DNA of 64,000 nucleotides from Octopus sinensis (Eukaryota). Shown one piece after another: positions 2,559-15,251 of the stretch. How positions within the stretch are numbered: the stretch's first letter is position 1; every line of letters begins with the position of its first letter. The stretch lies in assembly GCF_006345805.1 (NCBI RefSeq), contig NC_043017.1:25606001-25670000 (forward strand). The letters run 5' to 3'. A program made the translations under genes and the position numbers. The notes beneath the pieces are model-generated. The model ran no database searches. It was not told where the DNA came from and was given only the letters and a program-made list of their open reading frames with translations.

Positions 2559-2937
2559 CTAGCAGTATCGCCCGGCGTTGCTCGGGTTTGTAAGGGAAAT
2601 AACTATAAAGCATTTTTAGAGAGTTATAGCCAAAAAATAGCAAAAAATGGGGAAAAAAATGATGGTAATTTTTTTTTGAAGTTAAAAGGTCGAGTGCGTC
2701 CCCTAGACCATCTGTGGTTTGTGTTTCTGATTGTCGACCCCATGTCGAATTTATCGATCTTTTTCAGAACTGGGGGAACTTTTCAAAATTTTCGCTGCGT
2801 TAGTTTTGAATTATGACATTGGGCTATGTGTGTGTCAAGTTTCATCAGAATCGGTTGAAAGCCGTGGTCAGAGTGAGGGTACAACCAAACAGACACACAG
2901 AAACACACAGAGACAAACTGCCGTTTATATAGAGAGA
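2559..2937 (-). mobile_element. Non-autonomous Helitron-like element
   Basis: On the minus strand it starts TC and ends CTAG, inserted between host A and T. Subterminal hairpin cccggcgttgctcggg at 2571-2586. Short microsatellite near the 5' end. Confidence 0.75.
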
Positions 2938-3003
2938 TACTTTTTTGTTTTAATCTTGGAATTAAATGAGTTTTGATTTACTGTCAGATGACTTTTGGCC
3001 AAA

Positions 3004-3030
<27 letters not shown>

Positions 3031-3034
<4 letters not shown>

Positions 3035-5481: not shown

Positions 5482-5877
5482 AGAGTATATTTATAGAGAG
5501 AAGTTCGTTGGGGACCGCTGGAAGGATACTTGAGGGCTGCATGTGACCTTGGGAGCCGCTGTCCTAGCTGCTTCACTGTCGAGGACGTGTCCTGTCTTGT
5601 TTTTGTTGGCAGTGGATTTTTTCACGACGAAGACCATAATGTAAGACCTGACCACAAGTCTCAGCAACTACATCTCAAAGGTTGGACTTCTGATCAACAA
5701 ATGAAATGGCTAAAATTATGACTAGAGCAGCGACAAGACCGGTTTGAAGACCAGATTTGGAGATCGTTCATGTAATGATGTTACGGAAACTGTTGCGGAG
5801 AAGAGCATCTTAATTAATCCCGTGCCTGTAGCTTGTGTGGCTGATTTCGTTGTAGCCGTTCTCTTGTATATATATCA

Positions 5878-9378: not shown

Positions 9379-9434
9379 CATACACGCATATATGGGTACA
9401 GGACGACACCAATGATGCAAATAACATGAAATAC

Positions 9435-9513
9435 ATATGGCGTAGTGATTAAGAGCGCGGTCTACTAACCCCCAAGATTCCGAGTTCGATTCAAAGCAGG
9501 GGCTTGAATAATA

Positions 9514-9559
<46 letters not shown>

Positions 9560-9739
9560 TAATAATAATAATAATAATTATTATTATTATAACAACAACG
9601 TCGAAAAATAACTGAGGAATGAGAACCCAGGTTCGAAATTTTCCCAAGACACCTGATGATGGCGAGAAGGTATATCAGCCGAAATGTTGTGTTAACAACA
9701 AACAAGATGAGGATTGATATCCGTCAAATGTAAATAACG
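9435..9739 (+). mobile_element. tRNA-headed SINE-like element carrying a hammerhead motif
   Basis: A box tggcgtagtgatt, B box gagttcgattc, (TAA)n, then a hammerhead at 9648-9693. Flanked by the 12-bp direct repeat aacatgaaatac (9423-9434 and 9740-9751). Confidence 0.7.
9648..9693 (+). ncRNA. Type I minimal hammerhead ribozyme motif, slightly decayed
   Basis: gacac-CUGAUGA-u-ggc...gcc-GAAA-ug-UU-guguu. Canonical core and 5-bp stem I. Stem III augu could be CpG decay of palindromic acgu. Confidence 0.65.
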
Positions 9740-10313
9740 AACATGAAATACGTAAATAAACACGGGAAAACGAGTGAAATACGTAACGAGAAAAAATGTC
9801 AAGTTAACGCAGAGAAAGGACCCTTCATCAGTTGTCGGCTGTATACTCTTAATTTCAAGCATTCAACGACAATATGAGTCCTCAAAGACAGTTGCTCCCA
9901 AGAGCAACCCGGAGGGAGGAGGCCGGTTGCTCTTGTGACAGTAGCCCCACTCAGCTTTCACTTGAAAACATTATATCATTAGAACAGCTTATGCGTTGAT
10001 ATCTATCACATTGTTTTTCCCTACTAGTTTTGTTTAAATTATAACACATCTATATTTTACCTTTCGAAAATCTTATTCAATTTACGTGTTTGTATGCGTG
10101 TATAGCCTATTATTTCCTAACTATTTGCAAGATTGTGTCTGGTCTAATTCCCTTAACTATGTTTCATTATTTAACGTTATAGTATTATTGTTTCTAATTA
10201 ATTTTTATTTCTTCAAGTTTACCTTTGTGTATTTCTTTAAACTGAATTTCACATTATATTCATGGAATATGTTCAACATGTGTGTTTGTGTGTCTATACG
10301 TCGATACATACAA

Positions 10314-11762: not shown

Positions 11763-12299
11763 TTATCTATCTATCTGTCTGTCTATCTGTCTATCTATTT
11801 GTCTATCTATTTGCCTATATATCTATCTATCTATCTGTCTATCTGTCTATCTATTTGTCTATCTATTTGCCTATATATCTGTCTATCTATCTATATGTTT
11901 ATCTCTCTAACAAGAGAGGAGAAAAACACATCTTTGATTATACCGCACATTACCGACCATAGGTTCTATTATGCCAGCATATTCTATATATATTATAGAA
12001 CCTTTCCACGCTACAAGATATTTCTAATAGTTTAAGTAACTCCCAAACAACGCAGCGAAGTGACTAACAAAGCGAACTGGCTCGAGGCAAAAGTGAATCG
12101 GTGCTCCAAACAACAACACAATCATCTATTTATTCGGGCTTGTCATTATCAGATGACCAACACGGCATCGCTCAAGTCTTCCTAACAAAACTTGAATTCT
12201 CGAAAGGGGTTTATTCTTATTTGCTTTTTTTACACACATATATATATATACGTATAATTGCGTTTTTACTCTCTCTTTCTCTCTCTCACTGATGTACAC

Positions 12300-13194
12300 A
12301 CATTCAAATACATATCATAGACACACTCGTATATGTATATGTGTGTGTATACATACATACACACACACGCACACATATAGATATATATACACACATATAA
12401 ACACATGTGCATATATATATATGTATACACACACAACACATATATGCACACACACATATATATATATACACACACATATATATATATATACACACATACA
12501 TACACATATATATACGCACATACATAAACATATATATACATGCACATAAATATATATACACACACATATATATGCACACATACCTACACACATATATATA
12601 CATATATATAAATATATATACAGACATATACATACATATACATATATACACATACATATATATACATACATATATACATACATATATATATGCACACATA
12701 CATACATACACACGTATATATACATATATATAAATATATATACAGACATATACATACATATACATATATACACATACATATATATATATATATATATACA
12801 TATATACATACATACATATATACATACATATACACATACATATACATATATACATACATATACATATATACATACGTATACGTGCATACATATATATACG
12901 TATACGTGCATACATATATATATACATATACGTACATATATATATATATATACATATACGTACATACATATATATATATATATTCAAAAATACATCATCT
13001 TCATACCTCACGCACGTGCCTGTGTGTATGTATGTATATACATACATACATACATATATATATATACACATATACACACCCACCCACCCACATATATATA
13101 TACACTAGCACGAATATATATATCGATTTATAAAAGTACATATGTACCCGCATATATATATATATATATATGTATTGAATATGTATCTATATAC

Positions 13195-13253
<59 letters not shown>

Positions 13254-13390
13254 ATATATATATGAATACATATATTTGTATACACACACATATCTGCACA
13301 AACATATATGAATGTGTGTGTATAAATACGTACATATACATGTGTGTGTGTATACGCGTATATATACACATATTTGCATATATGTGTGTG
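12300..13390. repeat. Compound (TA)/(CA)/(TACA) microsatellite field
   Basis: Seen directly. Confidence 0.95.
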
Positions 13391-13757
13391 TATCTAATGA
13401 CACTGAATACTAATACCGAAATGAACTGAAGGTCGTAAACACTTGTAGACCAACGAAGGATATAAAAAAACATACTTTGAAATAGAAACAGAGAAACGGT
13501 TCACACTGAGAGGTTACTGCGAATAAAATAAAATCACTCTTTAGCTGTTAGCCTTTTCGTGCCAATCATAATTGTTTGTTTTTACAGGACTGTTTATTTT
13601 CCTTCTGTGCGGGGAAATACTGAACGAATGATTATAAAAGAGGGCCAGAGAAAAAAGAAATGACATTAAACAGGCAAGAATAAATTGAAAAAATGAAAAA
13701 AAAAAAAAATAACAGAAAAAAACCCAAACAAACGAAAAGGGAAACAAAAACGAATTA

Positions 13758-13950
13758 TAATTGGAGTGGTTGATGAAAAAAATCTGTACGGATATGTGTG
13801 TGTATGTGTGTATATATATATCTTTCTGTGTTCCTTTCTGCGGAGGAGCGTAGGCTCGAAACGTTAAAGACTTTTGCACTTACCGAGCGTTATATTAATA
13901 CATCTGTTTGTTGTCTACACCACCTGTCTTTGTCTTTAGTTTCTTTTTGT
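13758..13950 (+). mobile_element. Second direct copy of the hammerhead-like repeat (fold at 13834-13869)
   Basis: Fold identical to 11219-11254. Confidence 0.6.
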
Positions 13951-14117
13951 GTGTATATATATATATTTAAAAAAAATTCTTTTATTTGTTTCAGTCATTT
14001 GTGTATATATATACACACATACATATACTCATACATACATACATATATATACACACACATATATATATATATATACACATACACACAACTTGAATTTAGG
14101 ATGTATATACGTATGCC

Positions 14118-14154
<37 letters not shown>

Positions 14155-14190
14155 CACACAACTTGAATTTAGGATGTATATGCGTATGCC

Positions 14191-14246
<56 letters not shown>

Positions 14247-15251
14247 ACAATCAAGGAACGGCCATAATAGGCCATTCACCCACTAGAAATAACAGCCAAA
14301 GCTTCAACCGCAAATAAAAGTCAACTCCGTAAACCAGGAGAAAATTTAAAAACATTTACCCTGTAATTTCTTATACGATGCACCGTTTCATCTGCTGTTT
14401 AATGGTAAACTAACCTGATTAAATTAAATCAAGCCAATATATATATATATATATTTGCGGTGTATGCGTAAATGTGTGTGCATATTCACGGATGTTAAAG
14501 TGACTGAAACTGGCGAAAATGAAGGATTAAAACAGATAAAAGAAAAACGCCCCCACCCCCGCTGCCAAAAAAAAAAAGAGAGAGAGAGAAAAAAACATTT
14601 TGTGTCGGGCAATTCTCTCTCTTCTGACCGATTATCAATGGACATTAGTCCAGTCACGACCTTACGTTCTCTCTTTTACCTACAGAACAAACCACATATC
14701 GTGTCTCTTTCCGAAACACTCTTCACCTCATCTCCTATCTTTCACCCAACGCCGCATGTCGTCTGCCATTTTGAATCGTCGTCTGCCATTCTGAATCGTC
14801 TGCACTGCTTAGCAACGACGTTATCTATCTTCCACTGAACACACTCAGTAAACCAAACAGTTTCTTGTCCAAAAATATATTGGCTGTTCTTACATAGAAA
14901 TCCTTTCTTTCTTTGCTGGACATCTCTTCAACTCAAACGTTAGCAATAAATACTTCCATTTTCCTCTGCCGCACAATTCTCTCCTCCCATTCCGCCATGT
15001 TCATTTGCTTTCTCTATCGCTCACCAATTATTTTCCGAGCACCAGAAGCTTTTAAATGAAGACTGACCTCTCAGAAAGTGTATATCTCTTAACTATCTTT
15101 TTCTGAAGTTACCGTTATAGATAATTTCAATGTATACGGACATTACGGTGAAGTTAAGAACTTCGCTTCGCAGTCATGAGGTTCCGCGTTCGATCTTCGC
15201 TGAATGCTCTTCGGATAAATGTCATCTTCTATAACCTCGGGCTGACAAATA

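Follow-up and report, generated by a model that had tools for sequence, protein, structure and literature searches.

Is a tRNA-headed repeat that carries a hammerhead ribozyme a free-standing short interspersed element (SINE), or is it part of a larger mobile element? The question is raised by an insert of 305 bases in a stretch of 64,000 nucleotides (nt) from Octopus sinensis (assembly GCF_006345805.1, contig NC_043017.1, positions 25,606,001 to 25,670,000 of the forward strand), the whole of which we call the window. The original prediction for this insert listed 12-bp direct repeats, the A and B boxes of an RNA polymerase III (Pol III) promoter, a (TAA)n spacer, a second B-box-like word and a hammerhead, all of which it had placed correctly (Table 1), and took the unit to be a tRNA-headed SINE mobilised by Penelope-like machinery. 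Our findings suggest instead, with high confidence, to classify the insert as a solo pseudo-long terminal repeat (pLTR) of an autonomous Penelope/Poseidon-type retrotransposon.

The key observation is that the head adjoins coding sequence, for which the genome yielded 2928 candidates: in 28 of 30 long copies it lies 29 nt 3' of the stop codon of a reverse transcriptase (RT) open reading frame (ORF). The majority ORF derived from 35 long copies (5.2% mismatch) stays open for 780 codons, exhibits RT motifs and a match to RVT_1 (E 1.2e-9), has 54 homologues with RT domains, and includes a C-terminal GIY-YIG endonuclease (EN) recognised both by motif and by homologues. A CX2-5CxxC knuckle, which in the genome's Neptune-type ORFs lies between RT and EN, is absent from that place in its translation, and a FastTree tree, built without a named reference set, places it among Penelope/Poseidon-type proteins and away from two such Neptune-type ORFs. 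The same unit precedes the ORF as a 5' pLTR in 5 of 30 N-terminal loci, and begins at the head in loci L218 and L236; in tandem copies, it stands both directly behind the ORF stop and directly before the ORF start. The parental ATG (window position 9619) lies inside the unit, 5' of the hammerhead, and natural frames remain open through the unit for 401 codons in L218 and 391 codons in L225. The homologue P0005 starts with a matching peptide, and a hammerhead overlaps the ORF start in P0005 and in others. The second B-box-like word turns out to be coding sequence of this parent, and the suspected match of the tail to the pLTR of an autonomous Penelope-like element (PLE) is borne out. A single RT-endonuclease ORF, tandem pLTRs, an inverted 5'-truncated copy, an optional tail of 30-40 nt and a hammerhead at the ORF start are all present, as in Penelope/Poseidon elements.

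That the unit constitutes a repeat family, beyond chance, is evident from a search of 2.72 Gb of genome, in which the 3' part yielded 3484 candidates at first look and the head 846, and in which 40 scored copies proved 91-100% identical. An exact 41-base stretch of the hammerhead has 975 genome matches (control 0); since 2 of 31 head-anchored copies are exact, or else from a divergence of 6%, one arrives at a loose estimate of roughly 12,000-15,000 arms, and the pLTR family makes up roughly 0.1-0.2% of the genome, against about 4% of a genome for the octopus SINE 'Twitch'. Head and hammerhead belong together, as originally proposed: the hammerhead part follows the head within 400 nt at 19 of 30 head-anchored loci, and the head is found upstream at 17 of 30 loci picked by the hammerhead alone, 3 of these 17 extending into coding sequence. 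Chance nesting of the two parts is ruled out by this co-occurrence and by the position of the head behind the parental stop.

Turning to the architecture of the insertions, the 12-bp repeat around the window copy is a true target-site duplication, because in 18 of 19 paralogues of the host repeat the left flank runs on across one copy of the 12-mer. Among the 59 best-scoring loci, 36 are head-to-head inverted pairs, in which a tail of about 40 nt is present on one arm in 32 and on neither arm in 4. It is never present on both, where independent arms would give 7.1 cases (P 4e-4), which makes it likely that each strand has a start point of its own. In 22 of the 36 pairs both flanks have a word of 7-14 bases in common, compared with 75 of 872 control pairings (threshold at least 7 bases), and each pair is thus best regarded as one insertion. 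Among 23 single copies, two show a clear duplication, namely the window copy and L049. Counted from the ATG, the 3' ends of the copies lie at either about +120 or about +160, and loci are solo or head-to-head, with a single tandem pair (L027), rather than the head-to-tail arrays of non-coding units of non-LTR retrozymes (LTR, long terminal repeat). According to PMC8557442, truncated copies in inverted orientation and a tail on one side are hallmarks of PLEs. As side observations, a 7-bp stem between the 3' flank of the hammerhead and the tail encloses 9-nt repeats at the proximal end point in L048 (1700-1765; whole-fold z -0.8), and the head and hammerhead region of long copies (L144, L147, L148, L149, L164, L168) has often suffered short internal deletions.

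Where, then, does the RNA of such copies begin? Of the 5' ends of 30 loci with intact heads, 25 fall in the 7 nt that precede the tRNA-like +1 and 5 lie 40-1539 nt upstream of it, the interval of 8-39 nt being empty, while background loss (0.26% per nt upstream and 0.46% per nt in the head) predicts about 5% for the 7-nt stretch; genome counts of 2760 for the head-start motif and 814 for a motif 9 nt upstream point in the same direction. Scored with a box profile built from 20 host tRNA genes, the boxes beat all 150 shuffles in two good copies (17.7 and 18.4) and in L315 (21.4), and those of 17 other relatives stay within their shuffles. L315, a metagenome contig, holds a distant tandem Penelope element (37% identical) in which A and B boxes, a TAA-rich stretch, an ATG and a hammerhead follow one another in the same order as in the octopus family (2757-3032 and 5550-5699); L315 is not sister to this family in the FastTree tree, so that the two heads need not share an origin. 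L324, considered as a second tRNA-headed example, was rejected because its tRNA is situated upstream and has a terminator of its own. As for the tRNA of origin, similar scores were obtained for Arg, Ala and Thr among 20 distinct host tRNAs. The majority ORF contains no TTTT in 2340 nt (2.6 expected; 91 of 2000 shuffles, P about 0.045), compared with 9-13 in Neptune-type ORFs and 0 to 8 in box-less relatives. Judged from such sequence features, the tRNA-like head probably serves Pol III transcription.

Several points weigh against this account. A Pfam search of the parental ORF gave no match to the endonuclease part, and a clear duplication is missing in 21 of the 23 single copies, the boundaries of which are mostly uncertain. 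The 30 head-anchored loci were picked by an exact head motif and include two non-independent pairs, the box scores of the element (18-21) are far below those of host tRNA genes (33-40), and the TTTT deficit is marginal at the given P value, with two box-less relatives equally TTTT-poor (0 in 479 and 1 in 830 codons) and two TTTT in L315. In three RNA-seq runs of one study, of which 6% was read, we saw no site of many molecule starts or ends, so that the defined ends sought on the pLTR did not appear. The depth was 1000-2000x on both strands of the pLTR, free of strand bias, and 2-15x on the ORF; a lack of defined ends is as expected from read-through. Furthermore, a TATA-like word overlaps the stop codon about 25-30 nt upstream of the pile-up of 5' ends, and a hairpin of -9.7 kcal/mol spans the same 5' boundary. 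Uncapped Pol III RNA is a poor message. Finally, the internal promoter of Drosophila Penelope is, in the portion of PMC2377424 consulted, of the RNA polymerase II (Pol II) type.

Pol II might indeed start transcription of the same parent, with the same origin of solo pLTRs, from the TATA-like word at the stop, with the boxes as passive leftovers of an insert in the untranslated region (UTR) that derived from a tRNA. A Pol II start predicts the same 5' ends, given the distance of the word from the pile-up; relative to +1, the word is located 30-34 nt upstream. Several box-less relatives have TATA words ahead of the hammerhead, the (TAA)n behind the head resembles a SINE tail, and the message must be translated. 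Copies that start at the head lose the TATA word, however, and yet full-length copies begin there (L218, L236), the boxes occupy the same place in the distant L315, and the unit is devoid of TTTT. On balance, we regard a Pol II start as rather unlikely.

It is less likely still that the head holds no start site at all and that RT stalls or folds back at the boundary hairpin, so that 5' truncations pile up. The stability of this hairpin and the many junctions that are perfect fold-back palindromes would be in line with such stalling, but at least 8 of 25 short ends join the flank at -7 to -2 with no inverted piece, beyond the 3' arm of the hairpin, and the stronger hammerhead hairpins (-12 kcal/mol) cause no comparable stop.

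The view from which the locus was first approached, an independent tRNA-headed SINE with source copies of its own that is mobilised in trans by Penelope machinery, appears very improbable. The unit resembles tRNA-derived SINEs, as far as the consulted part of PMC8969392 defines them, in its A and B boxes, which stand close to the 5' end with a tRNA-like spacing of 33 nt, and in its size within 80-500 nt, its duplications and its high copy number; short copies outnumber ORF-linked ones about 5:1 and keep both boxes, and solo copies bearing the tail could serve as secondary sources. It differs from them in that it constitutes no lineage distinct from its autonomous partner and possesses neither the tail of a long interspersed element (LINE) nor poly(A). 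The head is native to the 3' UTR and pLTR of the autonomous element, and does not represent the graft of a SINE head on a Penelope tail. Comparison of 24 short and 30 long copies revealed no majority difference and similar mismatch (7.5 and 8.9% in the head, 6.1 and 5.7% in the hammerhead part), that is, equal age, and short copies form, by these sequences, no separate subfamily. Moreover, solo copies stop at the RT start points, and the Anolis protein needs RNA beyond those points (PMC11167929).

That RNase P cuts at the 5' side of the tRNA-like head to create the RNA end, with no promoter role for the head, agrees with the clustering of ends near the tRNA +1, but can practically be dismissed given that no cloverleaf forms and that most ends lie upstream of +1, in the would-be leader.

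We therefore return to the solo pLTR and consider it reasonably probable that its RNA starts at the tRNA-like head, likely by Pol III, and is likely reverse-transcribed from sites inside the ORF. By analogy to Poseidon of Anolis (PMC11167929), the element protein would introduce nicks into the two strands of AT-rich DNA at a distance of 7-14 bp, and cDNA would start at two internal points about 120-160 nt into the ORF. A SINE-sized solo repeat would result when copying proceeds from the transcript's first ORF start to the RNA 5' end, and longer, ORF-bearing copies when it sets out from the next unit. Head-to-head pairs may arise from two primed strands, one per start point, combined with fold-back at the short 5' palindrome. 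Owing to the internal boxes, every head-complete copy would retain the promoter. For the hammerhead, cleavage is predicted solely in dimeric form or with the protein assisting, and insertion would not depend on it.

As for the hammerhead itself, the family copy exhibits 10 of 10 pairs, the core boxes, stems I and II and a palindromic stem III, and 11 Penelope sequences reveal 18 double changes (0 of 500 shuffles); the paired stems that the original prediction relied on are present in the family and covary across those sequences. A strict hammerhead descriptor is passed by 11 of 79 copies. In the window, the core is found where it was predicted, but the copy is not canonical: it fails this descriptor, stem II keeps 3 of 5 pairs, and the ACGU palindrome of stem III has become AUGU. 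One letter is lost in each of the A and B boxes, a new TTTT has arisen at 9639, and the box score is 7.4, compared with the 17.7 and 18.4 of the two better copies. Self-cleavage by the window copy is unlikely. By itself, the loose hammerhead pattern is near chance (4 window matches, 1.27 expected; 6 of 100 shuffles reach 4). Rfam and ARAGORN applied to the window and to a good copy returned neither a hammerhead nor a tRNA match, and the head of a good copy folds with z +0.67 and into no cloverleaf. The (TAA)n spacer is often broken by later LINE-like and other insertions (L036, L042, L052, L053, L102, L112 and others).

Table 1. Parts of the pLTR insert and of the surrounding host repeat, in window coordinates.
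Feature	Position	Strand	Remarks
Older host repeat holding the insert	9385..9900	-	copies about 80% identical; (TA)n end
Left target-site duplication, 12 bp	9423..9434	+	single copy at paralogous empty sites
tRNA-like pLTR head	9435..9504	+	first 3-4 nt missing; no cloverleaf
Pol III A box	9438..9448	+	10/11 to the consensus quoted in PMC8969392 (consulted part); 11/11 in family
Pol III B box	9483..9493	+	9/11; 10/11 in family; 34 nt behind A box
(TAA)n spacer	about 9505..9599	+	length variable; later insertions frequent
First 121 nt of parental ORF	9619..9739	+	ATG at 9619; broken by a stop here; natural frames in L218, L225
Second B-box-like word	9630..9639	+	within parental ORF stretch
Minimal type I hammerhead	9648..9693	+	decayed; predicted cut 9688/9689 after GUU
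Hammerhead stem I, 5' strand	9648..9652	+	
CUGAUGA core box	9653..9659	+	
GAAA core box	9681..9684	+	
3' end of insert	9730..9739	+	proximal of two family end points (+121 from ATG); tail of about 40 nt absent
Right target-site duplication	9740..9751	+	
Type-SGC hammerhead of host repeat	9815..9880	-	not circularly permuted; decayed here

Beyond the octopus family, six relatives were found in genome contigs and none in viral contigs; no RNA containing the Penelope element was listed. Among the matches listed, contigs cross the UTR-head junction in 3 of 4 public runs with other organism labels, and under one such label (L143 versus run X20) a variant of the ORF part occurs at high depth, perhaps representing a younger subfamily. 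A genome search for GIY-YIG, covering 50 of 150 places, yielded Neptune-type and other families, none of them with the shared tail. Neptune-type PLE families (L289-L293, L067, L068) are young, with open frames of 775-883 codons, and their 3' ends carry, as seen by eye, a variant type I hammerhead whose core has U3-A8.

The host repeat carries a motif of its own. Its blocks are arranged in the order cleavage site, GAAA, CUGAUGA, accompanied by stems I to III, as in the type-SGC hammerheads of Eckert et al. (PMC10085705), which, according to the part of that article consulted, are reported only from metatranscriptomes; we regard it as a predicted ribozyme. An SGC descriptor scan gave 10 distinct matches in 2.39 Mb of fetched loci and 0 in a shuffle, and a looser scan gave 27 in 2.7 Mb (25 in three families that differ in stems I and III, 2 in low-complexity sequence), with 1 in 5.4 Mb of shuffle; many of these loci were fetched by SGC motifs, so that the counts cannot be read as a frequency. 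An alignment of seven sequences, which represent only three independent families, shows 8 double changes (0 of 500 shuffles). Besides the window, SGC loci comprise L295-L311, L400 and L407; L072, L082 and L419-L448; and L161. One family has 1197 exact 23-base matches and forms tandem units of about 860 nt, and SGC repeats number thousands of copies, some in such units with a (TA)n end; no parental ORF was found for them in 50 loci. In File S5 of PMC8557442, as far as its records were consulted, the consensus of the octopus Naiad, Naiad_Ovul, and the record preceding it exhibit by eye the SGC arrangement at the 3' end, a fourth sequence, with a 5-bp stem III, a 6-bp stem I and a weak stem II, and the 3' end of Naiad_Esco exhibits by eye stems I and III, not II. 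The authors flagged both Naiads as 'HHR_half_core', and in the same source, equally consulted in part, Naiads seem to be devoid of hammerheads. The 'missing' Naiad hammerheads may hence be permuted SGC ones. The literature searched contained no account of SGC ribozymes from animal genomes; such hammerheads would be new there and could explain their seeming lack in Naiads.

Taken together, it is tempting to speculate, albeit tentatively, that in some Penelope elements a tRNA-type Pol III promoter has replaced the Pol II promoter on at least two occasions, with the whole coding unit read by Pol III, so that the autonomous element would be its own SINE and shed SINE-sized copies; and that, beside it, permuted SGC hammerheads represent the 'missing' Naiad ribozymes in thousands of copies in animal DNA. 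The ends of solo pLTRs provide a fossil map of the Penelope transcript, comprising its start and both RT start points, and the one-arm tail rule provides a testable prediction for the still unsettled second-strand step of PLE insertion. A Pol III-type promoter in an autonomous element blurs the split between SINE and partner and, if the Pol III reading is true, indicates one road to the origin of SINEs. Since 893 of 900 recently active SINE families are unclassified in the portion of PMC13282606 consulted, some 'unclassified SINEs' in cephalopod annotations may turn out to be PLE ends.

In the literature searched, which was seen in part and with repeat databases outside its scope, no description of a tRNA-headed Penelope pLTR was found. 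Several known systems share some of its features, as the consulted parts of the respective sources describe them. Schistosome Sm-alpha and Sj-alpha repeats (PMC6765202) likewise combine a Pol III promoter with a following hammerhead in a short interspersed repeat; they are non-coding and tandem, with no parental ORF given, whereas the octopus unit belongs to an autonomous element. Metazoan non-LTR retrozymes (PMC7761336; bioRxiv 10.64898/2026.07.22.740005) are short hammerhead repeats related to PLE pLTRs as well, but occur in head-to-tail arrays and as circular RNAs with no described Pol III head, while most copies of the octopus family stand alone or head-to-head. Penelope of Drosophila virilis (PMC2377424, PMC4209133) shares an internal pLTR promoter, tandem and inverted structures and a pLTR hammerhead, its Pol II-type promoter overlapping an intron (PMC2377424).

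The closest likeness is to Poseidon of Anolis carolinensis (PAc; Frangieh et al. 2024, PMC11167929), which has a single RT-endonuclease ORF and a pLTR hammerhead overlapping the ORF start, which depends on the protein and without which insertion still proceeds. PAc nicks both strands and starts cDNA from two internal points, the spacing of which equals the tail (optional, 30-40 nt); the first lies at +111-118 in PAc and at about +120 in the octopus family. Internal starts, tail and a hammerhead at the ORF start are thus features already known. Unlike in PAc, the ATG of the octopus family is located upstream of the whole hammerhead, and the main text of PMC11167929 reports neither a tRNA-like head or Pol III boxes nor a one-arm tail rule, the latter of which likely adds that the two strands use different start points.
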